A stretch of 64,000 nt of DNA, from contig OY760427.1 of NCBI GenBank assembly GCA_963663495.1, forward strand, positions 273,130-337,129. The letters run 5' to 3'. The translations under genes were made by a program, and so were the position numbers. Below, piece after piece: positions 3,255 to 41,600 of this stretch. Below the pieces are notes generated by a model, which was given only the letters and a program-made list of their open reading frames with translations, did not search any database and was not told the DNA's origin. Origin of the DNA: Rhodothermales bacterium. GTDB taxonomy: Bacteria > Bacteroidota > Rhodothermia > Rhodothermales > Bin80. Position 1 is the first letter of the stretch, and every line of letters begins with the position of its first letter.

Positions 3255-3425
3255 GGGAGTTATATGGCTGAGTGCCACACGTTTTCGCAGGAATTACTTT
3301 TTGTGCTTTGGTGGTGCAGACAGGATGGCTTTCGCCAGTATTTCATAATTGGCTCCCGCTTTTCACGAAAAACTGCAATTATTTCAAATAACTCAACACG
3401 TGGGTACTCATGCTATATAAGTTCC
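3255..3425 (+). mobile_element. MITE-like derivative of an IS1595-family end (171 bp)
   Basis: Starts GGGAGTTATATGGC and ends GCTATATAAGTTCC (imperfect TIR). Near-identical to 20775-20946 (minus) and to the first ~85 bp of 21416-21500. Confidence 0.7.
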
Positions 3426-3630
3426 ATATATTAATGACTCTGAAATCAGTAAATTTTCAGAGCGAAATGTGAACTTGGGAAGAGACTCTTAGGTTAGGCC
3501 CAGATAGGCGACGACATCAATATTGTGAATATTGCAGGTCAACCCTTCGACTCGTAGTTTTCGGGGCTGCGTGGCGAGCGGGATGTGGATGCTTGGAAGT
3601 TGGCAGTGTTGGTGTTGGTTTTGCTAAGGA

Positions 3631-6600
3631 ATGATAAACGAAGCTGCGTTTGATTGTTGGACCACGCATGTTGTATTGAGATGTGTGGTGATCCTATTGG
3701 GTCTGCTGAATGCTCTCGGAATAATTCAGTCCGTGCAGGGCCAGAATGCGGCGGAGTCGCGATTTGCCGCTCCGGCTGCTGAGATTGAGATGAGTACCGG
3801 ATCTGAGCCGGAAGAAGTAGCTCCACGCTCCCTGTCGACCCGGATGGAAAGCATTGAAGCAGCGCCAGAGAACGGTTGGTGCCCGTTGGGACCAGGTAGG
3901 ATTTGGAGAGAATTACGAGAAGGAATTTCCTGTAGCTCCCTCTTTCATTGCGGGACGTGGGGTCGGCCAGGGCCGTACGTATACCTTCATCACACCAACG
4001 GTGTGATTGGTAGAAGAGCTGAGAATGGAACCGATGTGATTGTGACTGGACCCGACAGTGTTTTGATTCAGAATGACGTGGATTGGGTTCAGGTTGAGGC
4101 AGAGTACAGAGCCATCTCGGATGGTATACCTGAAGGAGATGAGGAAATTAATTGCTACTGCAGCAGCTACCGATACCCACCTACGCTAAGCGGAGGTGCC
4201 CGCATTCGAATAGTGGATGGTGACGGGTGGACTGTAAGCGATGCGACTGCCAATGAGAGTCATGGAAATATGACATTCCTGTTGGAGTTCCCGCAACCGG
4301 TAGCGCGGGACCTGACTGTTAAATACTCCACGAAGGATGGTACAGCAAAAGGTGGAACGGATTACACACGTACGATTGGAGCGGTCACCGTCAGGAAGGG
4401 TCAGATGAGTGCTTACATCGGGGTGCCATTGGTCAAGGATCAGATTCCAGAAGGCACTGAAACGTTTGAACTGTTTACAATCTCGGATCAGTTTTCTGGC
4501 ATCCCGGAGCAAAAGGCCACGGGCACTATTGTTGAAGGATCTCATCTCATAATTGAGCCATCTCCACTGTTTGTAGATGAAGGAGGGCAGAACACATACA
4601 CCATAGCTTTGGGAGAGCAACCCGGCGGTGATGTTACGGTGGCGATAACGGGGCATACCGGGACGGACTTGGCCCTTAACAATACGAGTCTGACGTTCAC
4701 GCCCACGAATTGGGATCAACGGCAAACAGTGACCGTGACGGCAGGAGAAGATGCCGACGCGATTGACGACAGGGAGACGCTCATGCACACGGCAACCGCA
4801 CCAGGAGGAGTTTTTGACGGGGTATCGGAAAGTCTGTGGGTGACGATAACAGATAAGTATGCGATAAGGCTTATAGTTACACCAAACCATCTGGATCTGG
4901 TGGAAGAGGATTCTGGACAAGCCTTTAGGGTAAAGCTGGGCTCGTCACCGCCAGTAGGGAAAGATGTGACAGTAGCGGTAAATGTTGGACCTCGGCTGGA
5001 TGGAAAGGTATCATTGTCCGAGCCACAATTGACCTTCACATCTTCCAACTGGAGCACTGATCAATCAGTAACGGTGACAGCGGAGAGCGATGCGGATGCA
5101 GATGACGAAGCAGGGACATTGGATTTGTCGGCAAGTGGGGGCGGGTATAGTGGCCAGAGCCAGACGGGTTATGTGTCTGTCATCGTTGATGACGATGACA
5201 GAGTGCAATTGGTAGTGGCTCCCAGATCACTAAGTTTAGTGGAAGGAGGTTCGGGAAAGGGGTTTACGGTGAGACTGGGTTCTGAACCTGTGGGGAATGA
5301 CGTGACGGTGGCGGTGAGCGTTCCATCGGCGCTGGATGGAAAGGTGTCGTTGTCTGACGACAACTTGACCTTCACATCTTCCAATTGGAGCACCGATCAA
5401 TCAGTAACCGTGTCGGCGGAGGACGATGGGGATGCAGATGACGAAGCAGGGACATTGGATCTGTCGGCAAGTGGAGGCGGGTATGATGGCCAGACGGGTG
5501 CTGTATCGGTCACCGTTGATGACGACGATACAGCGCAATTGGTAGTGACTCCGACAACGTTAAGCTTGGTGGAAGGGGGTTCGGGAAAGGGGTTTACGGT
5601 CAGATTGGGTTCGGCTCCTGTGGGGAATGACGTGACGGTGGCGGTGAGCATTCCACCAGAACTGGCCGGAAAGGTATCGTTGACCGTGCCACACTTGACC
5701 TTCACAGCTTCCAATTGGAGCACTGATCAATCGGTAACAGTAACGGCTGAGAACGATGGGGATGCGGACAACGAAGCAGGGACACTGGATCTGTCGGCAA
5801 GCGGAGGCGGGTATAATGGCCAGACGGGTGCTGTATCGGTCACCGTTGATGACGACGATACAGCGCAATTGGTAGTGACTCCGACAACGTTAAGCTTGGT
5901 GGAAGGGGGTTCGGGAAAGGGGTTTACGGTCAGATTGGGTTCGGCTCCTGTGGGGAATGACGTGACGGTGCAGGTCAACATTCCACCAGAACTGGCCGGA
6001 AAGGTATCGTTGACCGTGCCACACTTGACCTTCACATCTTCCAATTGGAGCACTGATCAATCTGTAACCGTGATGGCAGACGACGATGGGGATGCAGACG
6101 ACGAAGCAGGAACATTGGATCTGTCGGCAAGCGGAGGCGGGTATAATGGCCAGACGGGTGATGTATCGGTCACCGTTGATGACGATGACACAGTGCAATT
6201 GGTAGTGGCTCCGTTGACGGTGAGCTTGGTGGAAGGGGGTTCCGGAAAGGATTTTATTGTAAAGCTGGGCTCATCTCCTCCAGTGGGGGAAGATGTGAAG
6301 GTGGCGGTGAGTGTTCCATCGGAGCTGGATGGAGAGGTGTCGTTGTCCGTGCCACACTTGATCTTCGCATCTTCCAATTGGAGCACCGATCAATCAGTAA
6401 CCGTAATGGCCCAAGACGATAGGGATGCAGGCGACGAAGCCGGGACTTTAGAACTTGCGGCAAGTGGAGGCGGGTATGATGGCATAAATGGGAGAGTGTC
6501 GGTGGATGTAACAGACGACGACACACCGGGCTTGGTGTTGAGCAAGGCAAGCCTGACGATTCAAGAGGGGAGTTCGCGTGATTACACGGTGAGGCTTGTC

Positions 6601-15955: not shown

Positions 15956-17119
15956 TCAGGCGGCTTTCTTGACAAAGCCGTGTACACACTCGGTTCGCAT
16001 CCGCTTACCGAGACTTCCCCCGGGGCGGACCGGTAAGTACCGATAGCGTTCTGGCAGCACACGTTCTGAAGAATGTATCGGCTTAAGCCCCACCATCATA
16101 GCTGCTTCAACCAATCCGTCAGAATTTTGGACATACGTGTTCCTGATGCAGTTGTTGCCAATGACAAACGTAGCCTCGCCACCAGTTCGCAACACTCTGG
16201 CGACCTCCACCATCATATGGTACAGGTCTGCAGCATAGCGGTCAACGATACGCTGAAAGCGTCGCGGCAACTGTTCGATCTGCCCCATTGCATCTTTGAT
16301 ACGTGCAAATTGGCTGGCGCTATTACGGTCACGAGGCGCCCTCTCCGCGCCAATGTTGCTTGACCGGATACGTCGGAGCGTCTTCAGATCGTACCCAAGC
16401 CACACCAGGGCCATTCTGTGACCGCGCAGGTAGTCTATCGCATTAAGGTAAGGCGGGGAGGTTAGCACCGCATCCATGGTACCGTCACCGATCCTAGTCA
16501 GTTGCCGTGCATCACCCTGCGCCACTGTTGCTGTCCCCACGGGTGGGTTCTCCGACAGGCGGCGGCACAGCAAACGAATTGCTTTCTTGTAGCCGGGCAC
16601 CACATTGTAGTCCGATTCCAGGCAAACCCGATGCGGACGACTGTGCGATGTGTCTTGAGCTAGGGAAGCACATGGCTCCTTGGTAACAACAATCCTGCTG
16701 AGGGCCAATCGCAGCACATCCAGTGTCGCAGGATCAACATTCTCCTGCCCAGAACCATACTGATCAAGAACAAATGCTAGTCGTCGCAAGTCGGCACGCT
16801 GAGTATCACCAAACCAGAACCGTGAAAACTCCGCTGTCTCCCTATCCCGGTCCATCCAAGGAAGAAACACGGCCTTGGAGTCCGTTACTCTTGCATCCTC
16901 CAACACGCGTTTAGCCAAGTTCCACACACTACGCTCGTCTATAGGCGTTGTCCATACGCGCGCCATCAGAATGGCCAACGGATCCGTATCAAAGCCTGCC
17001 GCAGTATGCCCCAATGACATTGCCTGACGAAGGACAACTCCAGATCCCGCCATTGGGTCAAGAACGCGACTCCCCTGGTCCAGTCCAGATAGGCGCTCCA
17101 GTGCCAAGTCGGGAGCCAT
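15956..17119 (-). CDS. DNA amino-methyltransferase (N4-C/N6-A, SPPY type), possibly 5'-damaged
   Basis: SAM motif VLDPMAGSG and catalytic LTSPPYLNAIDY. The HPFPARM motif lies upstream of the called start, behind an in-frame TAA at 17156-17158. Confidence 0.85.
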   Translation of the reverse strand: MAPDLALERLSGLDQGSRVLDPMAGSGVVLRQAMSLGHTAAGFDTDPLAILMARVWTTPIDERSVWNLAKRVLEDARVTDSKAVFLPWMDRDRETAEFSRFWFGDTQRADLRRLAFVLDQYGSGQENVDPATLDVLRLALSRIVVTKEPCASLAQDTSHSRPHRVCLESDYNVVPGYKKAIRLLCRRLSENPPVGTATVAQGDARQLTRIGDGTMDAVLTSPPYLNAIDYLRGHRMALVWLGYDLKTLRRIRSSNIGAERAPRDRNSASQFARIKDAMGQIEQLPRRFQRIVDRYAADLYHMMVEVARVLRTGGEATFVIGNNCIRNTYVQNSDGLVEAAMMVGLKPIHSSERVLPERYRYLPVRPGGSLGKRMRTECVHGFVKKAA

Positions 17120-17168
17120 TCTGGCTGGGAATGGATGGATGGGTTGAATTCTGGCTTAGCTCATCCTC

Positions 17169-19488
17169 CTATTTAGCGTTGGCGTATTCACGATTTTCCA
17201 GCTGGGACATCACGGTCTCCCTCAATCGTACTGCAGTGGTATTCAACTCAATTTGACCATTCTTGTATGCAATCAGATCGGGAGCAATACCTTCAAGTCC
17301 TTTGGCGAGGGTCCTGACATCATCTGACTTGACTTTGTGACGACCCACAATCCTGTTACATTCCATGCCAATCAATGCAGGCGGTAGCTCATCGGTAACA
17401 TCCTCCTTGAGCTTTACCAATGCCTTAAGGAACACATCTATCGTAAGTCTCCGATTCGATCTCAAGTACTCGTCCAGTCCAGCTACCCAGTAGCTGACCT
17501 CACATGGGTCATAGAGCTCAAACATTTCTTGAAGCTTTCCCAAGGATACAGCACCGTACCGTACTGTATGCTGCAGTAGAGTCCCCAAGTCTCTGGTTTT
17601 CAGAGGTGTCACACGCTGGGCCTCAAAGCGATGGATGGAGGAACCACTGGCAAAGTCTGGTGCAATCACAAGAGCGTAGTCAGCCTTGTACATATCGCGA
17701 TGCTGAACAATCGCATCCAGCCGGACATTGTTTGTCTTGACTTTACTCTTGCCTGTAGCCTTGGTATCATAAGTAAAACTGTAGTTTGGCGTAGGCGCGG
17801 AGCCGCCTACGGAACCCGTTTTCGGCGGCAACAAGTGCGCCCTTGCTAAGCCATCCGGTTCTCCAGACTTTCCCATTCTGGTAACCTCAAACCCCAAGTA
17901 GCGTAATGCTTCCGCAGACGCAGCTTCCAATAGTTGGAAGTTTTCATTGTCGTGATGGCTCCGCAAGAGTAAACTCCAGACGAGGTCACCGGAACGGCGG
18001 TCTTTCACGGCAGAATATCGCATTAGACTATCCCGGTATCCCCTCATGGTATCCATCATCCGTGGATCAATCCCAATATTGATTCCTTGAACATCGGACA
18101 AAACAGTAATCATTGCGAGATTGCGCAACAGAATCTTCCCGGCTTTACCCCTTGCGTGCTCCTGGACAAACGGATGTTTTTTATTCACCACGATTGAACG
18201 ATCGCTCACTTTGTACTTCACAAAGCTAGCGTCCGCATACTCCCCGAATCTCACTTCACCGAGTGCACTACCAATGTCTTCTGTCGTGCTTTTCAGCCAC
18301 TCTTCGCGGTGGGCTTCGCGATCCGTGATATCCGATTCATCAAACAGGTCTGGGAATGGTGGCTCCATCCTCAATGATTCGGATACAACACTTTGAAGTG
18401 GCTTAAGGGAAACAAAACCGAGATTCCTGACAAGATAGTCTCCTCCGTCTGGCATCACTGCGGACTTATCATCGTCAAACAAGCCTCGGGCTTTGTTAAA
18501 CGCCTTTCTCAAGAATGCACGGAAGACGGACACCTCGCGCCGATCCTGAAACTGCTCACGATTGGTCGTGATAAAGTCGTCTAAGCCATCGGCCCGAACC
18601 GTCATTCGGAACCGGGCCCATGCTGCGTGGCTCAGATTCTTCTCCCCAAAGCTAGGATCTCCCTGATTGACTAAACGTCCCCGAACGTTGATAAGAAAGC
18701 CGTTTGAAGCTCCGTGTTTCTCGCTCTTGCCCCCGCTAATCTTGTCCCGATAGAGCCTGACTCTGCCCGTAATTCTTCCAATTCCGGGAATCTTGGCATA
18801 CGGGACATCCTCGTTTCCGTATTCGATGGAAACGATAGACTGAGCTGGCATAGCCTCGGTCTCAACTGCATTGCTCAGCTGACCGGAATGCCTAGTGTCA
18901 GGCGCGGTGTCTTCGTGGCTTGCAACCGTTAAGGTTTCGAATTCAAGTTCTGGACCTATTACCCATTCGCATGTTACCGGAAAATTCACTTTGGGTGACA
19001 TGAGCCGCTCACCATTGAGGTAGATCGCCATATCCGTTCCGAGAGGAAGCGCCGACGCTAACATTCGCCGAAGTATTCCTGCCTTCAGGTTTTGTCCGGT
19101 GGGCTTCAAATCAGAAAGGATTACCAGGGTCCAAGTCTTCCCATTCGGCTGCGGATGCGCAGACGAACTGGTCCCATACTCGCAGCCGCTGGGGTCTGGC
19201 TGCACCTCAGGCGCTGTATTTGTGCGTGACTGAAAGCCCTTATGAATTCGTTGACGAATCTCTTCTCCACCGCAGGTCTTCGCAAGAACAGCTTCCACCT
19301 CCGGCCATGTAACCTCATAAACAGGCAATTCCAATTCGCTGATTAGTCTGCCTTCATGTCGGCCGTCCAGGTTCTCAATCTCCCCATAATCCATCGTAAC
19401 CATACGGATGACAGCGTCGTCTCCACAGCTAATGTATGTGAGTTTCTTCGCCAGCACATACGTGGCAAGTTTTCCGATGCCAAACTTA
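17169..19488 (-). pseudogene. GHKL/MORC-like ATPase with C-terminal PD-(D/E)xK-like nuclease domain, 5'-truncated
   Basis: The frame extends upstream to KFGIGKLATY (GHKL G2 box) and stops at the TnpB element end. It also has WTLVILSDLK, NGFLINVRGRLVN, and C-terminal GEPDGLA..YDTKAT. Confidence 0.75.
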
Positions 19489-20766
19489 GGGAATTATATA
19501 CGTGAGTGACCAACTGTACACAGTGAGGCACTAGTATCAATTTCACGGGTCATAGGGGTCGGTAACCCGAACGCCCCTCGCCGTGCAGAAGCCCCAATCC
19601 CGGAGGCCAGTATGTTTGCAGCCGCATTCAGGTCTGCATGATCCGCATGTCCACAGGACATACACGTGAATGTGCTCTGCGTCTTACGGTTACTCGCTTC
19701 TGTGTGCCCACACACAGAACACCGCTGACTGGTATAGGCAGCGGTAACCTTTATCACCTTGCGGCACTTATAGCCCAGCATCTGATCCAGCTGGCCCCAA
19801 CCTGTTCGCAGTATTCCACGGTTGAGGCCAGACTTCTGTCTGACGTTTGTGCCAAAGCTCTCCATCGTCCCCTTAGCTGAACGTGTCATCGCTTTGATCT
19901 TTAGGTCCTCCAGTATCACCGTTGAGGAGCATTTGGCAATACTGCGACTTACCTGGTGGTTCGCATTCTTGAGGACGTTAGCACGCTTGCGCTGTATGCG
20001 GGCGATTCTATGCTTCCGCCTGTTACGACGGTTGGAGCCTTTCTTCTGTCTCGCCAGTCTTCGCTGATGCCGCTTCAACTTGGCATCAAGACGCTTGGTA
20101 TCCGGTTGTCTGATAATGCTTGTATCGCCCTCTGTGGAGACCATAGCGATCTGCCCGCAATTACGGTCAATGCCTACAGCACTGCCGGTATCCTCTATTA
20201 CAGGTGCCTCAATCTTGTAGCAGATGACAGCATACCCTTTGCCGGCGTTCTTCTTTACAGTGGCTTTGATGGGTATACCATCAGGGTACGGGTTGCCTCC
20301 CCGCCTGCGGAGCGCCATATATCCCACTTTCGGGATATACAGCTTGCCATCCCGAACCCTTACGTTATCCGGGATCGTGAACGAAGGCGTACTACCACGT
20401 CTGGAATGGAATCTCGGTCTTCTCTTACCTTCCTTGAAGAATGCCTTCCATGCATCCGCCTGATATTTCAATGTGTATCTAACGACACCAAAGGAGTATT
20501 CAGGTAGCCACTCGACCGTACGGCGCAGTGCCGTGAACCGCTTCCCCAGCGAGAAGAAGCTTACCGAGGGCGGCTTCTCTCCAGCCTCTTTCGCTTTCTT
20601 GTACGCCTCGCTCTGCTCTGCGAGGATGGCATTCCACACAAACCTACACGCACCCGCTAATCCAGCAAGTTGCTTGGCGTTACTTCGACTTCCGGGCAAC
20701 AGCCTGTATGTGATATTGCGGTATGCACTAACCGTTTCGGGCATGGCACTGTGATATATAACTCCC
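19489..20766 (-). mobile_element. Non-autonomous TnpB element bounded by IS1595-like TIRs (1278 bp)
   Basis: Ends are GGGAGTTATATA (20766, minus) and TATATAATTCCC (19489), 11/12 identical as inverted repeats. The 3' boundary is confirmed by the second copy ending at 51040. Confidence 0.8.
19494..20744 (-). CDS. tnpB: RNA-guided endonuclease TnpB family protein
   Basis: N-terminal YRL..GACRFVWN, RuvC-I VGIDRN, RuvC-II VILEDL, zinc finger CSVC..CMSC and RuvC-III HADLNAAANIL. 416 aa. Confidence 0.95.
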   Translation of the reverse strand: MPETVSAYRNITYRLLPGSRSNAKQLAGLAGACRFVWNAILAEQSEAYKKAKEAGEKPPSVSFFSLGKRFTALRRTVEWLPEYSFGVVRYTLKYQADAWKAFFKEGKRRPRFHSRRGSTPSFTIPDNVRVRDGKLYIPKVGYMALRRRGGNPYPDGIPIKATVKKNAGKGYAVICYKIEAPVIEDTGSAVGIDRNCGQIAMVSTEGDTSIIRQPDTKRLDAKLKRHQRRLARQKKGSNRRNRRKHRIARIQRKRANVLKNANHQVSRSIAKCSSTVILEDLKIKAMTRSAKGTMESFGTNVRQKSGLNRGILRTGWGQLDQMLGYKCRKVIKVTAAYTSQRCSVCGHTEASNRKTQSTFTCMSCGHADHADLNAAANILASGIGASARRGAFGLPTPMTREIDTSASLCTVGHSRI

Positions 20767-20774
20767 TAATATAT

Positions 20775-20946
20775 GATAATTATATTCCATGCGTACCCAC
20801 GTGTTGAGTTATTTGAAATAATTGCAGTCTTTTCGTGAAAAGCGGGAACCGATTATGAACAACTGGCGAAAGCCATCCTGTCTGCACCACCAAAGCACAA
20901 TAAGTAACTCCTGCGAAAACGCGTGGCATTCAGCCATATAACTCCC
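20775..20946 (-). mobile_element. MITE-like IS1595-end derivative, second copy
   Basis: Reverse complement aligns along its length with 3255-3425. Confidence 0.72.
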
Positions 20947-21415
20947 ATATCTTTCTCCGCTTGCAGAGAGGATTGACGCTATCCGCAATAAGATCATTGG
21001 TAACGCGGAGGACAAGGGCCGGGCATACAATACGGATCAGCTTGACGATCAGCACATTATCCGTCGCATGGTGCTCAAGCGGTGCGTCTACGGTGTTGAT
21101 AAGATCCCAATGGCGGTAGAGCTGGCCAAGGTGTCGCTTTGGCTCCACACCTTCACCGTCGGCGCTCCGCTAAGCTTTCTTGATCATCATCTCCGATGCG
21201 GCGACAGCCTGTTCGGCGAGTGGGTGGCTCGCGCTGTGCAGAGGACAAACGAACATAGTAGCCTTTTCCTAAGGGACCCGCTTGACCGGGCGATGCGTGC
21301 TGCCGCACCGATGCAGATCATTGAGGGATTGACGGACGCCGAGATCGCCGAGGCGCACCGGTCTTCTGATATTTTCTCCGAAGTATCGGAAATGACTGCT
21401 CCTCTGCATGCATTT
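20947..21415 (+). pseudogene. Internal fragment of an Eco57I-like (type IIG) restriction-modification methyltransferase
   Basis: IIRRMVLKRCVYGVDKIPMAVELAKVSLWLHTFTVGAPLSFLDHHLRCGDSL. It is cut on both sides by GGGAGTTATAT ends. Confidence 0.85.
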
Positions 21416-21454
21416 GGGAGTTATATGGCTGAGTGTCACGCGTTTTCGCGGGCG

Positions 21455-21859: not shown

Positions 21860-22108
21860 TCAAGCACAGACATGGAAAAGCTGGCGCATAACGGCCCTGA
21901 CCACCGGAATGGGTACGGCGTTGCCAGTAAGCCGTCTGACGGTCGTTATCGGACTGTCAATCTCGTAGCTGTCGGGGAAGCCTTGCAGGCGCAGTATTGC
22001 GCGGCCCGTTAGTCTCCGTTCTTCGTCCACGAGCAAGTAGTGGTAGCCGGCCGATGCCCGGAGTGCGCATGAGTACGGATGGCTTGATACGCTACCGCTT
22101 ACGTTTAG
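21860..22108 (-). pseudogene. DNA (cytosine-5)-methyltransferase C-terminal fragment
   Basis: Hand translation: SSHPYSCALRASAGYHYLLVDEERRLTGRAILRLQGFPDSY..RRLTGNAVPIPVV (motifs IX and X). No start codon. Confidence 0.85.
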
Positions 22109-22404
22109 CTATGAAATAAGGGATTTGTACATGAGCCGTTTACCGACCAGTCCTTGAGCAATTATTGTCATTTGCTCCGCTGTGTCGTAGTCGCGTGCAT
22201 TGTGTCGCCCTGCAAATTCGTTCACGTACCGCTGTAGGTGTTTCTTGCTCATGTGGTGGTACGTTCCGTAGTACCCACGCTTCAGCAAAGACCAGAAGCT
22301 CTCTACGCCATTGGTATGGACCTGCTCACGAACGTATTCGCCAACAGAGTGACGTACGTAGGCGTGGTTGTTGCCGCCCCGGTATGCTGACGTGCCATCC
22401 GTAT
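22109..22404 (-). pseudogene. IS1595-family (ISXO2-like DDE) transposase C-terminal fragment
   Basis: Hand translation: TDGTSAY..VRHSVGEYV..HTNGVESFWSLLKRGYYGTYHHMSKKHLQRYVNEFAGRHN..GKRLMYKSLIS*. Confidence 0.9.
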
Positions 22405-22517
22405 GTAAGCGTGCGGTGAACTACATCTTGATTGGGTGATGGGTTCTGGGGAGCTTACCCCTAGACGTGAGAACCCAGACCCCAGATCGCATGGTACAGC
22501 CCAAACGTACGGCGGAT

Positions 22518-24285
22518 CCTCCCTTATTCTTAAGGGAGTTAAGTGGCGGGGAATCGTCGTTTAATATTATGGCGTAATATGTTGACTATACACGGTTTGA
22601 ATGGGATCCTGTGCGACGCTCAAACGTTCAGAAACCCCAATACCCATTCACCCTGTAAAACACCCGATGCAAGATCCCAAGTCCAACCTTCTGTTCGCTT
22701 GCCAATTCAATAAATCCGTTAAAGTTGTACGCTCCAAGACCGATAATCTAACATCGGATGCCGGCGTCATTCCTATGCGCCTGCTCATGGTGATCAGCAC
22801 CTTGGCATGCCGACTCGCTTCCGTGCTTAAGGACAATCGGTCCCAAGCTCGGATTACGCATAGCCTTGAGGAGTTAGTGCGGCAGTTACTGCTGCAACAT
22901 GTGCAGGGGTGGGGACGTCAGCCAGATGCGGACAAGCTTCGCAGGGACCCTGCCATGCGCGTGGCCACTTCTTCCAAAAGGGGTATGAGGGCATTACAGG
23001 ACGATAGGTCCCTGGCATCCCAGCCAACCATGTCTCGCTTCGTGCACATGTTGGCCGGGAAAAAGAATTTCAAGAAGTTGCGCCTTTTTGCAGAGACATT
23101 CGCCATGGAGCACCTGCTGCAGCGTGGTGGCGGGAAGCGCCGCCCCGAGGTGGTCTTTGATGTGGACGGTGTACCGGTAGATACGCATGGCAAGCAGCAG
23201 GGCAGCAAGTGGAACGGATATTACAAGCGCACCATCTTTCTGCCCCTTATCGCCATATGCGGTGAGTCGGGCGACATGTTGGGGGCGGAATTGCGAGGGG
23301 GCACGCAGAATGTGGTGAAGGACTGCTACGGTTTCATTCGACGCATTGGGCTGGCATTGCGTGAACATGTGGCCGACAAGGTCATTGTCCGATTGGACGC
23401 AGGCTTCAACAGTGCAGAGTTATGTGATAAGCTGGAGAACGACCGTATCGGCTACGTGATGCGTCTGGTCCGTAGAGCGTCGTGTGGTGCTCGTGGTTGA
23501 TCCGGTGCCGGGAGAGCTTTTTCCGCGGCATTTCTATCTGATCACCGATCTGGATGTAGAAGCCTATCCGGCAGAGCAGCTTGTGAATCTGTACCGGAAG
23601 AGAGGAAAGGCGGAAAAGCACTTCGGGAGCTGAATGCGGCTTGCTCCATGGCGCTGTCGTCGGTTCTCCGTCCGAAGACACACTATAAGGGCCGGCCTGT
23701 AGTGCGGGTGCCTGATGAGTCGGAGCAGGATGGGTCGGAACAGGATGCCGAGATCCGAGCCGAGAACGAGGTCCTGCTACAGGTATACCTTCTAACGTAT
23801 CAGCTCATGCATGTGGGGCGCTGCCTTATGCGGGAGCCTGACGAATCCCAGATAAGTCTGAGCACCTATCGCGAGCGTGTACTCAAGGTGGGGGCCCGCT
23901 TCGCACAACACGCGCGCAACATCGTTATCCACATTGCCGCCAGCGCAGATGCTGCATGGGAGCAATTTTGGCGACGTTATTGTCAACTCACATGGATCAC
24001 GCTTCCCATGAAGAGCTAGCCAAGTCAAATTTGTGCCTGCGCTCCAACACCGCAGGCGCCCAACGCGGAAAGCGGAAAGAGAAGGTAGGCAGAGGTGTGT
24101 CTACCCGACAGACGTCTTCCCAAAATCTCGGTAATGTGATCGCTGTCGTGTCGGGAAAAGGGCCTAAACTGGTGTTTTCAGCCCCTCTCATGGACGTCCC
24201 TACGCGTGAACAACGCACAATCGGTCCTGCAGGTACCGAAACAGCACTTCTAGACCCGAACAGGGTACGACATGAATATTGCAGG
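22518..24285 (+). mobile_element. IS1380-family element inserted in IS66 tnpA
   Basis: Imperfect TIRs CCTCCCTTATTCTT / CCTGCAATATTCAT and flanking repeat CGGAT / CGGAA. The empty site CGTACGGCGGAAGAGATG is seen at ~38240. Confidence 0.85.
22667..24019 (+). pseudogene. IS1380-family transposase, frameshifted and internally deleted
   Basis: LTSDAG, LASQPTMSRF, FDVDG..THGKQQG..WNGYY and VRLDAGF. It continues in other frames (HFYLITDL..YRKRGKAE; ENEVLLQ..RERVLKVGARF). Confidence 0.88.
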
Positions 24286-24563
24286 CGGAAGAGATGTTTC
24301 CGCTGGTAGAGCAGTATAACGAAAGGACCCAGTCCGCAGCGGCGTTTTGTGCAAAGCACGGCATCTCGTATGGGCAGTTGAATTATTGGAGGCGGAAGGT
24401 TCGCCAGGAGACTGCAGCCGAGGACAGCCGAGGCTTCGTGGAAATAGGCAGTGTAGCACCAAGGGAAGCGGCACAGGTAGAGATCGCATATCCGGGTGGG
24501 ATACGGGTGCGGTTCTTTGCACCGGTCTCTGCTTCGTACCTGGCCAGGCTGACGCAGTCATGA
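24286..24563 (+). pseudogene. IS66 accessory protein TnpA (orf1), 3' part
   Basis: QSAAAFCAKHGISYGQLNYWRRK..GFVEI..VEIAYPGGIRV. The 5' codons MVQPKRT are at 22491. Confidence 0.82.
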
Positions 24564-38625: not shown

Positions 38626-41600
38626 TTATCGTGGCATGTACTCGTTCCAAGCGTCAGAGTCCGGGATACCATTACTGATGAGTACGCGTTGATCAGCGCT
38701 TCCGGCATTCTTGCTAATTGCATTCATTGCGGATATCGTGCCACCATCTGAAGGAGCGTAGTTGTCAATGAAGCCCGTAATCTGTCCTGACGTTTCGTCA
38801 ATCACGATTGCCATAGGAGTATCGTGTTCCCCGTCAAGTGTGAATGATCCGCTTGGCCCCGACAGCGTAACCGATACCAGCAAGTCATCCCACTCGGACT
38901 GAGCTGGTACAGCGAAAGCGAAGGAGGAACTACCATCGCCGTCAGCCACCACCGGCATGGAAAAATTCAGGGAAAAGAGCTCGTTGCCATTCTCTGCATG
39001 CCCGGCAAGCTTCCAAGGTCCTGGAGCCTGCGGCAATGAGCGCGCCTCGTCAATTACAAAGATCGGATTCAGGTATGGCTTCAAGGCAGAGTCCATGCCT
39101 CCCCAAAGAAGAAGAGAGGTTTTCGATGACATTGATACCAATGGCTTTTCCCCGCTAATGGGGTCCGCACTGGACGTCCGACGATCAAAGACCTTGTTGT
39201 AGTTGTAATCACTAATCCATTTGTAAGAACAGTATGTCATCAAGTCATGAGACCCTCTCGGGTCTACCATATAATTTGGCGTGCTAAAATTGTATCCCCA
39301 ATTCCCGATGAGGCCCCCGTTATATGGATAATATGGATCCAGCCATGCGGAGGCGCCGCATGGTGCATGGAGAAGGCCGAAATTGTGGCCAAATTCGTGA
39401 GCCATTACCGTAGTACCAGGAGATGCCATTGAAGCATATCCACCTAGTTCCCCAAGGCCGCCAGCGCCTTCAGGCTCGGTAAGTATCCCCATCCAATGGC
39501 CTGTGCCACTTGCCGCTGCTCGCATTGCTTTAACGCGGCCATAAACGTACAATGCATCCTTGGTATCAATAGTCACAGGATTTAGGACGGTCACTGTTAT
39601 ATCCTTTATAGGAAACAAATATCTCGTAGCGAAAAGGCCTATATGGCCGTAAGGATCGGCAGCAATAGCTTCAGGTATGCTAACCGCATACATATCAGGG
39701 TCCCCTATGGTTAAGAATGGGACATACGTTATATCGAAAGATGGCACCGTAACAACATTTACAGATTGCCGTCCCGTTTCTGGAATCCGCTTGGCCACCC
39801 CCAATGAGGTCGGTACCGTGTCGTCTGGATCTACTTCAATGACTATTTCAAGTCCCGGCTGAACGACACTTGCCGGAACCACGGCATTCAGGGAAAGCGG
39901 AAGCCCCTGTTCCCACACTCGGTTTGGGATAAAGCGAGTCCTTTGGGGGATCTGAATCGTGTGCGCCAACTGATTATTCAAGTAGAACTTCGCAATGGCC
40001 CTTGGTAGCCGTACAGACGAGGACAAAGGCCCATTTATCGTAGGCAACACTCGTAAAAGCGCCTTTTCTCCCGCGACGAGTGGGGTTGGGTTCGTGAAGG
40101 ACTGGACCGCCTGAAACATAATGGCGATATTTCCCTCGGGTGGACACTTGGCCAACTCTGAGACAGTTAATCCTTTTTCCCACCTCAATAACGATGATGT
40201 GGCTGCCGGCAAACACACACTTGTTCCGGTTGCCTGAAAATGGGTCAACTTGGTGAGACGTACGAAGCTGGCAGGTATTTCGCCGGTCAACCCCGAATTA
40301 TTTGTAACTGAGAACTTAACCAAGTTCGAAAGGCTGCCAAGCTCCGAGGGAAGCTCCCCGGTTAGTTTATTGCCGTTTAGGTTCAGTTCACTCAGACTAC
40401 TTAGGCTGCCAAGCTCCGAGGGAATTGGCCCCGTCAAGTCATTCCCTGCCAACATCATTGTCTCTATACTTGTCAGGTCACCCAGATCTTTAGGAAGGTT
40501 GCCGGAAAGAGACGCACTATCGATACTAAGGCTCTCTAAGTCACCCAGCGTGCCCAATTCCTCCGGAATCGGGCCCTGTAAGGTGTTGTCATCAAGGTTC
40601 AAATCGGTCAGAAGTGCTAAGTCCGCTATTTCCGCCGGCAGCGCGCCATCCAAACCATTACCGCTCAGATCCAACGCTGTTACCTGCCCGTCAGCATTGG
40701 CAGTAACACCATACCATTCGTCAATCGGTGCATCGGTCAGCCACTTGCCTTTATTCGTCCAATCTGCTCCGCTCAAGGCGCTGTACAGGCTTTCCAAGGC
40801 GGGACGATCAGAGTTATCGGGGCACTCAACCCCTGTTCCACTGTGCGTCGTCAAGGCCGCCAGCCAATCTGCTACAGCCTGCACGCTCGGTACGCACAGC
40901 CCGGTCCCGACATAACTGAAGTCGTCCAAAGCATCCAGACTTGTCAGGGCTTCCGGGATAGCGCCCGTCAGACCAGCGTTCGTGCTCAGGTCCAACTCAA
41001 CCAAGCTGGCAAAATTACCCACGCTTGCCGGTAACTCCCCTGCGAGACTATTACCGCTCAGATCCAACGCTGTTACCTGCCCGTCAGCATTGGCAGTGAC
41101 GCCATACCATTCGTTAATCGGTGCATCGGTCAGCCACTTGCCCCTGTTCGTCCAACTGGCTCCGCTCAAAGCGCTGTACAGGCTTTCCAAGGCGGGGCGA
41201 TCAGAGTTATCGGGGCACTCAACCCCTGTTCCACTGTGCGTCGTCAAGGCCGCCAGCCAATCTGCTACGGCCTGCACGCTCGGTACGCACAGCCCGGTCC
41301 CGACATAACTGAAGTCGTCCAAAGCATCCAGACTTGTCAGGGCTTCCGGGATAGCGCCCGTCAGACCAGCGTTCGTGCTCAGGTCCAACGCAACCAAGTT
41401 GGCCAAATTACCCATGCTTACCGGTAACTCCCCTGCGAGGCCGTTATCGGACAGCTCAATCGCTCTCACACGGCCCAGCCCATCGGTCGTGATGCCAAAC
41501 CAAGTGGCAACCACTGCAGTCTGGCCCCAGTTTCCCCGGTCCGTCCAGCCAGCGCCTCCAACGGCGGCGTAGAATGCCTCCAAAACCTCGCGGTCGTCCT

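Follow-up and report, generated by a model that had tools for sequence, protein, structure and literature searches.

In a Rhodothermales genome, the gene of a TnpB-family RNA-guided nuclease is carried as cargo by a non-autonomous IS1595-type transposon, an architecture of which we are nearly certain, and insertions of this transposon carry a pronounced G bias directly 5' of the left target duplication that is absent from tnpB-less elements with the same ends. The explanation that we favor as a whole, to which we assign a probability of about one half, is that an IS1595 transposase moves tnpB and its omegaRNA in trans, that the G acts as the TAM of the nuclease, and that homing or retention keeps the element in place. 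The element was found in a 64,000-nucleotide stretch of contig OY760427.1 (positions 273,130 to 337,129), referred to here as the window, in which all coordinates are given unless they are marked as genome positions.

Structure and copies of the tnpB-bearing element

The repeat unit, here designated A, is present in about 250 copies in the genome (BLAST coverage of 243 to 265 across the unit), 178 of which are full length. It is composed of a 172-bp MITE-like module, 8 bp, and a 1278-bp unit that contains tnpB. The window features belonging to A and to the associated autonomous IS1595 element, ISB, are the following.

3255 to 3448, plus strand: isolated copy of the MITE-like 5' module of A, also located at genome position 276384
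19489 to 20946, minus strand: full repeat unit A, 1458 bp, non-autonomous IS1595-type element with tnpB
19489 to 19500, minus strand: right-end inverted repeat on the tnpB 3' side, reading ...ACGTATATAATTCCC in the tnpB sense and containing the stop codon
19489 to 19607, minus strand: candidate omegaRNA scaffold, structure-supported part, overlapping the last tnpB codons and running through the right inverted repeat
19494 to 20744, minus strand: tnpB coding sequence, 416 aa, with RuvC residues D193/E279/D371 and zinc finger intact
20755 to 20766, minus strand: internal left inverted repeat of the 1278-bp unit, GGGAGTTATATA in the tnpB sense, 22 nt upstream of the ATG
20767 to 20774, minus strand: 8-bp spacer joining the MITE-like module to the 1278-bp unit, ATATATTA in the tnpB sense
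20775 to 20946, minus strand: MITE-like 5' module, whose outer 90 bp match the left end of the autonomous IS1595 element at about 93% identity
20947 to 21415, no strand assigned: captured host fragment of 469 bp, joining A to IS1595 in a 3.7-kb composite, about 22 copies by coverage
21416 to 22404, plus strand: truncated autonomous IS1595 element ISB, positions 1-989 of 1774, 99.1% identical
21863 to 22036, minus strand: C-5 methylase fragment (Pfam) in ISB
about 22109 to 22404, minus strand: C-terminal transposase remnant in ISB
50392 to 51040, plus strand: second copy of A, 5'-truncated, comprising the last 649 nt, with its right end at 51040

A preliminary description of this DNA had taken the 1278-bp unit between the inverted repeats GGGAATTATATA (19489-19500) and TATATAACTCCC (20755-20766) as the mobile unit. 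These repeats are real, with 11 of 12 positions complementary; as described, the ATG (20744) is 22 nt in from one end, and the other end contains the stop codon (19494-19496). The repeated unit, however, extends beyond 20766: of the 369 BLAST matches obtained with the 5' region of tnpB, 217 continue past this position, and copies of A end at 20946 (133 matches) or at most 4 nt away. Boundaries beyond the repeats, which that description had listed among the observations that would count against its reading, were thus seen, with A ending at 20946; mobilization in trans by IS1595 is nevertheless upheld.

In this genome the active unit is the 1458-bp A, with the 1278-bp unit as its older core. Alone and with a true 8-bp duplication (TTACCAAA), the core occurs only once in the genome, and a 1273-bp element in a related genome (locus L001) matches it in layout. 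The spacer at 20767 to 20774 is probably a relic target duplication; this junction recurs as ATMTATTA in further copies of A. In the MITE-like module the inner inverted repeat is degenerate. Free MITEs of about 170 to 180 bp with 8-bp duplications are present in the genome, among them one at genome position 4566461 that is 91% identical over 179 nt and is flanked on both sides by ATATCTTT.

The end of the second copy, proposed earlier to lie at 51040, was confirmed: the 649 nt at 50392-51040 are 98% complementary to 19489-20137, and sequence identity stops exactly at the repeat. The truncation point of this copy adjoins a member of the same IS family that interrupts ISB in the window at 22404/22405. 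The captured host fragment gave a weak Eco57I-like methylase match under the Pfam cut-off, and 11 composites of about 3701 bp carry 8-bp duplications. No duplication belongs to the window copy of A by itself, as this copy lies within a larger composite truncated at 22404, and the predicted outer junction of that composite is absent from the window.

Probable mobilization in trans by an IS1595 transposase

No transposase is encoded within A itself. Full-length ISB comprises 1774 bp and encodes a 318-aa DDE transposase matching DDE_Tnp_IS1595 (4.6e-37), with a Zn_ribbon_IS1595 match of 23.6 bits, slightly below the cut-off of 25.4. ISB and A have their first 90 bp in common (about 93% identity), and about 700 bp of ISB is additional DNA of passenger-like character. 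The motif GGGAGTTATAT at 21416 had been attributed to an IS1595 remnant, rightly so, as it is the start of the truncated element that matches ISB positions 1-989 at 99.1% identity. Throughout the genome, 55 DDE_Tnp_IS1595 matches were detected, 19 with a 318-aa open frame, and the terminal 11-mer GGGARTTATAT, with which all ends begin, occurs 791 times versus about 3.4 expected. The ends of A also fit what we take to be the ISNwi1-group consensus, ggnnatTAT. A search for Y1/HUH transposases that was positive in 6 of 14 genomes yielded zero Y1_Tnp matches in this one.

The putative mobilization of the tnpB element in trans by an IS1595 DDE transposase is well supported at the sequence level. 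The proposal that tnpB lies between IS1595-type terminal repeats and is moved in trans agrees with the 8-bp duplications described below, with the same ends on the 1774-bp IS1595 element, and with the lack of Y1/HUH transposase matches in the genome; an IS1595 transposase with these ends, whose absence the preliminary description had named as counting against its reading, is encoded by this 1774-bp element. In other genomes, IS1595 transposase homologues were present in 4 of 5 that hold tnpB elements, within 3 kb at only 1 of 80 tnpB loci, and matching ends were found for locus L089 and for three loci of G002. Full elements with duplications were recovered at only 2 of 15 loci elsewhere, and trans-mobilization in these genomes is therefore only partly shown.

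Target duplications and an empty site

Duplications of 8 bp, which the preliminary description had suggested looking for together with empty sites, flank 114 of the 160 testable copies, that is, the full-length copies outside composites; 89 are perfect and 25 have one mismatch. A shuffled control gave 0 perfect duplications and 1 with one mismatch among 160, and the same comparison at flank lengths of 6, 7, 9, and 10 nt gave 0 perfect and at most 3 one-mismatch matches. The duplicated target is AT-rich, with the pattern HWWNNWWD, and the duplication sequences are variable. In run X4, one contig connects the two flanks of a single copy directly and skips 1465 bp, the length of a 1457-bp element plus one 8-bp duplication, and therefore represents an empty-site allele.

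The tnpB gene and a candidate omegaRNA

In Pfam searches, the TnpB protein matched OrfB_IS605 (5.1e-18), Cas12f1-like_TNB (2.7e-19), and HTH_OrfB_IS605 (4.9e-8), and it aligns over nearly its full length with ISDra2 TnpB (8h1j/8exa, E of about 1e-23). This alignment bears out the claim that the catalytic residues are kept, placing D193 (GIDRN), E279 (ILEDL), and D371 (HADLNAA) on those of ISDra2 TnpB; two CxxC pairs are also present. An open reading frame of at least 405 aa is retained in 93 of the 178 full-length copies, with all three RuvC motifs in 86 of the 93, and tnpB is broken in the other 85. The distance from stop codon to element end is 5 nt in the window copy and in 83 of the 93 intact copies. 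Across codons 1-300, third positions diverge 2 to 3 times as much as positions 1 and 2. Codon-position divergence and the intact RuvC triad together indicate that tnpB is under constraint. A second tnpB family, with about 61% amino acid identity, has the same ends and the same G bias.

Over codons 301-417, the third-position excess of change vanishes. The candidate omegaRNA scaffold in this region showed covariation over 19 diverse sequences, with 97.6% of cells paired and 13 of 18 pairs compensatory; none of 500 shuffles reached the observed value, and slid controls scored at most 0.107 versus 0.471. Its terminal stem uses positions 10-14 of the inverted repeat, counted from the end, and shows AT/CG and CG/GC swaps in a set of 28 distinct sequences, in line with the earlier suggestion that an omegaRNA runs through the terminal repeat. 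These data argue for a structured omegaRNA that overlaps the tnpB 3' end and is predicted to reach the right end of the element. An outer GAA/UUC mini-stem at the RNA 3' end was considered and rejected, with one position pairing in 27 of 28 sequences and the other two in 17 of 28. Positions 19300-21000 gave zero Rfam family matches at E values up to 1, and a search of sequencing runs for this sequence returned no RNA run.

A G 5' of the left target duplication

With all elements oriented in the tnpB sense and counted only if they had validated duplications, a G occupied position -1, directly 5' of the left duplication, in 136 of 146 tnpB-bearing elements. In tnpB-less elements that share these ends, it was present at 14 of 54 ends (odds ratio, 39; Fisher p, 6.5e-21; genome G frequency, 0.277); this control set is small, with 27 elements made up of MITEs, solo ISB, and a few others. 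Beside this strong G, a weak R at -3 and a weak S at -2 were seen. The G tracks the orientation of tnpB even where another type of end lies on the left, as in 11 of 11 composites that have the right inverted repeat of ISB there. It was likewise found in 11 of 13 elements of the 1300-bp class of the second tnpB family and in 41 of 42 related elements elsewhere (Rhodothermales, Paracoccaceae, Arenicellales, and Gammaproteobacteria MAGs), with the other side unbiased; several of these 42 have near-symmetric 24-bp inverted repeats.

The count is confined to elements with validated duplications because ends shared over 90 bp in about 300 copies allow recombination to scramble the flanks. The 30 "solo" ISB left ends comprised 5 with their own duplication (C, C, G, T, and T), 4 paired with a tnpB right end, 1 paired otherwise, and 20 without a matching partner. 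A larger control built from such single ends, with G at 24 of 30, was dropped for its mixed provenance. A second composite type, consisting of ISB, about 120 bp, and A, measures about 3.35 kb.

Ordered from the youngest to the oldest copies, the G fraction was 13/14, 26/28, 39/42, and 29/30 and therefore trendless. Slow differential loss is thus insufficient as the whole cause, and the filter acts at or soon after insertion. A bias built into the transpososome could account for such a filter as well.

A model of homing or retention and its alternatives

If the guide consists of the duplication plus the flank, G(-1) is where the TAM would lie. According to the model that we propose, the 318-aa ISB transposase would cut and paste A in trans, each insertion duplicating 8 bp of AT-rich HWWNNWWD target. 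The omegaRNA would be transcribed in the tnpB sense, fold from the last 120 nt or so, if not more, including the right inverted repeat, and extend into the flank, so that its guide would be the 8-bp duplication followed by downstream host DNA. This guide would match the uninterrupted empty site, where it would be preceded by the base found 5' of the duplication, and TnpB would need a G at this -1 position as a minimal TAM. Empty alleles, either on other chromosome copies or arising by precise loss of the element, would be cut by TnpB, and repair templated by a filled copy would bring the element back or spread it; persistence would be limited to insertions 3' of a G and in the right orientation. 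The occupied site would be protected because the last base of the element, the C of ...TTCCC, holds the TAM position. RNA expression and cleavage by TnpB are presumed in this model.

In our judgment, the odds that the G is a TAM and that the element homes in this manner are about even, and the G bias itself may or may not, with equal weight on either side, be the footprint of guide-RNA-directed homing or retention. Slightly short of even, we place the broader proposition that these proteins form a TnpB clade adapted to IS1595 transposons, with the 8-bp duplication as the first guide nucleotides, a single-G TAM, and a homing or retention drive. Among the considerations against the model, a TAM with one strong base would be unusual for a TnpB, and homing would confer a strong advantage only where cells have several chromosome copies or recombine frequently.

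The same architecture might instead carry TnpB and its RNA as passive or decaying cargo, the G reflecting an asymmetric transpososome that prefers the phosphodiester 3' of a G. In the usual geometry of DDE transposition, the right end, here the tnpB 3' end, attacks the bond that links G(-1) to the first duplicated base, T1, and a right-end-specific effect on target choice may follow from this geometry. The absence of an age trend in the G fraction is what a bias set at insertion would give, and the broken tnpB genes in 85 of 178 full-length copies are consistent with decay. However, MITEs and solo ISB share the transposase and the terminal nucleotides and are unbiased (14 of 54 ends), and so are MITEs with GGGAATT-type ends like that of the tnpB right end. 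Moreover, elements elsewhere have near-identical 24-bp repeats, yet the G is found on the tnpB 5' side only, in 41 of 42. The signature of purifying selection on tnpB also speaks against passive carriage, as does an RNA structure that covaries across taxa, which passive cargo would not keep. We consider this explanation possible but rather unlikely.

It is improbable that TnpB and its omegaRNA serve a role other than homing, such as regulation of the transposase, action as a repressor or activator at the left duplication, or aid in target capture. Exapted TnpB-related regulators are reportedly nuclease-dead, whereas 86 of the 93 full-length open reading frames here have the complete RuvC triad, and the G is positioned exactly as predicted for a cleavage TAM on the empty site. 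What lends such a role some appeal is that the left junction of every G-site copy presents a G plus an 8-nt guide match, and that exapted relatives of TnpB reportedly act as RNA-guided transcription factors (Wiegand et al. 2024). An ordinary IS200/IS605 (IS1341-type) or IS607 tnpB element with TIR-like ends, a reading that the family-typical TnpB protein might suggest, can practically be dismissed in view of the variable 8-bp duplications at 114 of 160 copies, the inverted repeats in common with the DDE element IS1595, an empty site differing by exactly the element plus 8 bp, the 0 Y1_Tnp matches in the genome, and a length of 1458 bp that, with tnpB as its sole long open reading frame, leaves no room for tnpA. 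Elements of IS200/IS605 have neither inverted repeats nor duplications, insert 3' of a fixed 4-5-nt motif, and use an HUH transposase; those of IS607, with a serine recombinase as tnpA, likewise lack both repeats and duplications.

Implications for cut-and-paste transposons

The selfish role of TnpB, in which the nuclease restores the transposon after scarless excision, has been worked out for IS605 and IS607. Here, a tnpB-bearing DDE-type element is at least about five times as abundant as its tnpB-less relatives, a strand-specific one-base signature sits exactly where the TAM must lie, and the benefit of TnpB to cut-and-paste transposons becomes directly testable. If the proposed homing or retention drive holds true, G-adjacent insertions would be about 35 to 40 times likelier to persist, which would explain why A has reached about 250 copies, or about 6% of the genome, and its tnpB-less siblings stand at tens; this would be the first proof at the genome level that DDE transposons benefit from carrying OMEGA nucleases. 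A true single-G TAM would make the 416-aa protein a nearly TAM-free miniature nuclease with an unusually wide targeting range. The element would also provide a bacterial parallel to the Fanzors in eukaryotic TIR transposons.

Comparison with known systems

Members of the ISNwi1 group of IS1595 encode a DDE transposase whose N terminus bears a zinc ribbon, produce 8-bp duplications, and have ends that begin GGnnaTTAT; some carry passenger genes. The lineage described here resembles this group in its DDE transposase, 8-bp duplications, GGnnaTTAT ends, and passenger-like DNA; it differs in that the cargo of A is an RNA-guided nuclease with a candidate guide scaffold, without a transposase. To our knowledge, none of the listed IS1595 members carries tnpB. 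In comparison with ISDra2 (TnpB structures PDB 8H1J and 8EXA), the TnpB of A is homologous over its full length, and in both elements the scaffold overlaps the tnpB 3' end and stops at the right boundary, with the guide taken from the flank, as is predicted for A. Unlike ISDra2, A is without an HUH transposase, subterminal hairpin ends, and a fixed 5-nt target/TAM at the left end, and has inverted repeats, a variable 8-bp duplication as the putative first 8 guide nucleotides, and an apparent single-G TAM.

The premise that TnpB is confined to IS200/IS605 and IS607 elements, in which it normally travels according to the preliminary description, is outdated, and TnpB inside DDE transposons was already published in 2023. 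Six TnpB branches associated with DDE transposases (DDE-1 to DDE-6) and having inverted terminal repeats are reported by Altae-Tran et al. 2023 (PMC10691335), as are solo TnpBs flanked by ends of this kind; IS630 (DDE-6) is the only family named in the main text, which contains 0 occurrences of "IS1595," although the supplements may list it. Going by that main text, A is like these branches in having a prokaryotic TnpB within inverted terminal repeats and a TnpB 3' end near the transposon end, and like the solo TnpBs in having ends near-identical to those of transposase-bearing copies. The pertinent passages of a 2026 review (PMC13565253) list ISL2, IS630, and IS1031 for DDE-associated TnpB and hold that DDE transposons should profit little from it. 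In the pertinent passages of the two sources, neither a target-site bias such as that of A nor a TAM across a variable duplication is described. In the literature searched, TnpB in IS1595 and a TAM footprint across a duplication were not found, although the supplements of PMC10691335 may list this branch.

Parallels to the proposed use of the transposon end come from the account of ISXfa1 and Fanzors by Yoon et al. 2023 (PMC10711439). The TnpB of the IS607 element ISXfa1 depletes a GGG motif, so G-type TAMs exist. Fanzor and Fanzor2* are, like the protein encoded by A, TnpB-family nucleases in cut-and-paste and often non-autonomous transposons, and in these systems and ISXfa1, as predicted for A, the inverted repeat is part of the RNA scaffold. 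According to the same account, the duplication in Fanzor and ISXfa1 elements is short or fixed and absorbed into the scaffold, whereas that of A is 8 bp long and variable and would therefore have to act as guide. The host of A is bacterial, whereas the hosts of Fanzors are eukaryotic.

Structure and copy number of the tnpB element

The preliminary description had placed a catalytically intact tnpB between inverted repeats, with the ATG 22 nt inside one repeat and the stop codon within the other, and had recognized the same end motif in a second tnpB copy and an IS1595 remnant. All of these features are found in the window:

19494..20744, minus strand: tnpB open reading frame, 416-aa product
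19489-19500: inverted repeat GGGAATTATATA, with the tnpB stop codon inside
20755-20766: partner repeat TATATAACTCCC, with the tnpB ATG 22 nt inward
50392-51040: second copy of the tnpB element, 5'-truncated, ending exactly at the repeat
21416: start of a truncated IS1595 with the same repeat motif, cut at 22404

The predicted protein retains the RuvC residues D193, E279, and D371 and two CxxC pairs, matches three TnpB domains in Pfam (OrfB_IS605, 5.1e-18; Cas12f1-like_TNB, 2.7e-19; HTH_OrfB_IS605, 4.9e-8), and aligns over nearly its full length with the ISDra2 TnpB structures 8h1j and 8exa (E about 1e-23). In the single-contig genome (5.92 Mb), 791 occurrences of the 11-mer GGGARTTATAT were counted, versus about 3.4 expected.

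According to BLAST of the tnpB region against the window's own genome, the tnpB segment is present about 250 times (coverage 243-265). The 1278-bp unit delimited by the two repeats, first taken as the complete element, stands alone with a true 8-bp target duplication in one instance in the genome. However, position 20766 is not the main copy end: it is spanned by 217 of the 369 matches to the tnpB 5' region, and most copies extend to 20946. This larger, 1458-bp element (element A; 19489-20946, minus strand) is present in 178 full-length copies. Read in the tnpB sense, it consists of a 172-bp module resembling a MITE (a small tnpB-less element with the same ends), 8 bp (ATATATTA), and the 1278-bp unit. 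The outer 90 bp of the module match the left end of the autonomous IS1595 at about 93% identity, while its inner repeat has decayed; free MITEs flanked by 8-bp duplications are also present, one of them sharing 91% identity with the module. In other genomes, the nearest relative is L001 (78% amino acid identity), a simple 1273-bp element like the 1278-bp unit. Thus, considering this form and the solitary instance, the 1278-bp core is ancestral, and it is the fused 1458-bp form that has amplified in this genome.

Probable mobilization by an IS1595 transposase

Among 160 full-length copies outside composites, the 8-bp flanks were identical in 89 and differed by one mismatch in 25. Pairing the left flank with the right flank of a different copy yielded 0 identical and 1 one-mismatch pair, and flank lengths of 6, 7, 9, and 10 nt gave 0 perfect and at most 3 one-mismatch matches. 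The duplication consensus is roughly HWWNNWWD. An autonomous 1774-bp IS1595 (e.g., L082; ends GGGAGTTATATGGCTGAGTGCC... and ...GCAGTCAGCTATATAACTCCC) encodes a 318-aa product with a DDE_Tnp_IS1595 domain (4.6e-37) and a near-threshold IS1595 zinc ribbon; 19 of the 55 DDE_Tnp_IS1595 matches in the genome have this 318-aa open frame. At one young copy (L083, 7817/9283; genome positions about 4943817-4945283), contigs of the public sequencing run X4 join the flanks and skip 1465 bp. This length equals the 1457-bp element plus one duplication, and the X4 contig is therefore an empty-site allele. A contig of run X5 extends into the element at this site, so the insertion is polymorphic between the runs.

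Together, the duplications, the transposase of an element with shared ends, and the empty site fit DDE cut-and-paste mobilization in trans, as originally proposed. IS605 and IS607 readings are excluded by these three observations and by the absence of an HUH Y1 transposase in a domain search of this genome, a control search being positive in 6 of 14 genomes.

About 700 bp of the autonomous IS1595 are nontransposase DNA. In the IS1595 of the window, this DNA includes, at 21863-22036 (minus strand), the codons for 58 C-terminal residues of a C-5 cytosine DNA methylase (Pfam 2.4e-12), which look like a passenger remnant.

In the window, A is linked to an IS1595 copy via 469 bp of captured DNA. 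This 3.7-kb composite has itself transposed (11 copies with 8-bp duplications), and its fixed flank is found at 18 of the 178 A copies. In the window composite, a different insertion sequence interrupts the IS1595 part at 22404, and what would follow beyond this point is absent. This insertion sequence (22405-24494 and 50280-50402) has about 75 to 110 genome copies; a fragment of its transposase, with a DDE_Tnp_1_4 match in Pfam (5.5e-49), lies at 22601-23497. The second tnpB copy borders, at 50392, on an end related to this insertion sequence. A composite of a second type, about 3.35 kb long (458489-461838 and similar places in the genome), comprises IS1595, about 120 bp, and a tnpB element in the same orientation, surrounded by the 8-bp duplication TTTCCATA with G at the preceding base. 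This arrangement effectively amounts to an autonomous tnpA+tnpB transposon.

A G precedes most tnpB-bearing insertions

Of 146 tnpB-bearing elements whose duplications were validated, 136 have G as the base 5' of the left duplication, read in the tnpB sense (position -1), and no base bias was detected on the opposite side. Where the ends are shared but tnpB is lacking (MITEs, solo IS1595, and a small number of other elements), G is found at 14 of 54 ends, a proportion equal to that of G in the genome as a whole (odds ratio for the comparison 39; Fisher p 6.5e-21). G tracks tnpB rather than end type, because the 3.7-kb composites have the IS1595 right repeat as their left end, yet show G in 11/11 cases. 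Like ends, duplications, and G are seen in a second tnpB family of this genome, which has about 20 copies and about 61% amino acid identity. Among 77 related loci from metagenome-assembled genomes labelled Rhodothermales, Paracoccaceae, Arenicellales, Gammaproteobacteria, and Candidatus Rariloculaceae, 44 have inverted repeats and 8-bp duplications (at most two mismatches), and G occupies position -1 in 41 of the 42 whose duplication has at most one mismatch.

A candidate guide RNA scaffold

The final 200 nt were aligned for 19 diverse elements, i.e., A, the second family, and 17 elements from other taxa. In their common structure 97.6% of cells pair, with compensatory changes in 13 of 18 pairs; 0 of 500 shuffles matched the observed values. 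The covariation score of 0.471 dropped to at most 0.107 when partners were slid by 1 to 3 columns. In a further stem, nucleotides 9-13 past a conserved GUGAA pair with positions 10-14 from the element end, inside the repeat, and among 28 distinct sequences this stem swaps AT/CG (10/13) and CG/GC (10/15). In codons 1-300 of tnpB, third positions diverge two to three times as much as positions 1+2; this excess is absent from codons 301-417, as expected if the gene tail doubles as RNA. An Rfam search of the element region returned no family match. The covarying stem thus takes the putative scaffold through the right repeat, and the guide would have to come from the flank, as had been suspected.

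Proposed role of TnpB

If the guide comprises the duplication and the downstream flank, its target would be the empty site, on which position -1 would be exactly the TAM position; at an occupied site, this position would be held by the last C of the element. TnpB and its RNA might thus cut G-bearing empty alleles, and repair from a filled copy would restore or spread the element, so that G-adjacent insertions would be those that persist. Such cutting is the simplest explanation of the G bias that the sequences offer.

The main competing explanation places the bias in the transpososome itself. In standard DDE geometry, the right end is joined at the bond 3' of the -1 base, and the G fraction is constant across copy age classes, which fits a bias fixed at insertion. 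However, tnpB-less elements with the same ends are unbiased, and related elements of other taxa have symmetric repeats, the 24-bp repeats at both ends being almost identical in several of them.

Relatives and neighboring loci

Among 30 related genomes sampled, element DNA matches were found in one other genus only (5/5 genomes), at 64 to 85% identity plus one 23-nt match at 100%, and often covered the RNA-coding part alone. In three genomes of a related genus (G020, G021, and G023; e.g., G020:C1:1378375-1378532), many matches are limited to element positions of about 1255-1413, the RuvC-III region and RNA scaffold; they may represent independent RNA remnants or copies in advanced decay.

Elsewhere in the window, a long array of diverged direct repeats at 40300-49200 (periods of 393, 846, 993, and 1065 bp; families D1-D20) is probably a giant repeat protein gene, and a unit of about 330 bp is repeated five times in tandem at 4951-6541 (73-89% identity to the reference copy). 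At 15959-19457 (minus strand), a 387-aa putative DNA methyltransferase with weak Pfam matches adjoins a 762-aa open reading frame for which Pfam gave no match, and 32 nt separate the start of that frame from the composite transposon. This may be a restriction or defense locus.

Comparison with known systems

Altae-Tran et al. (2023; PMC10691335) described six TnpB branches that are associated with DDE transposases and have inverted terminal repeats, as well as solo TnpBs lying between ends of this kind. The kind of association seen here was thus already known; the main text of that paper names IS630 as the sole family and nowhere mentions IS1595. A 2026 review (PMC13565253) lists ISL2, IS630, and IS1031 and expects DDE transposons to gain little from TnpB. 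As far as literature searches show, covering the main text of the 2023 paper, the IS1595 partnership, its scale (A occupies an estimated 6% or so of the genome), the G footprint, and a variable 8-bp duplication as putative guide are unpublished. Yoon et al. (2023; PMC10711439) reported a GGG motif for an IS607 TnpB and a Fanzor RNA scaffold that takes in the inverted repeat and the duplication. Whereas in Fanzor the duplication is absorbed into the scaffold, in the IS1595-borne elements the variable 8-bp duplication would serve as guide.
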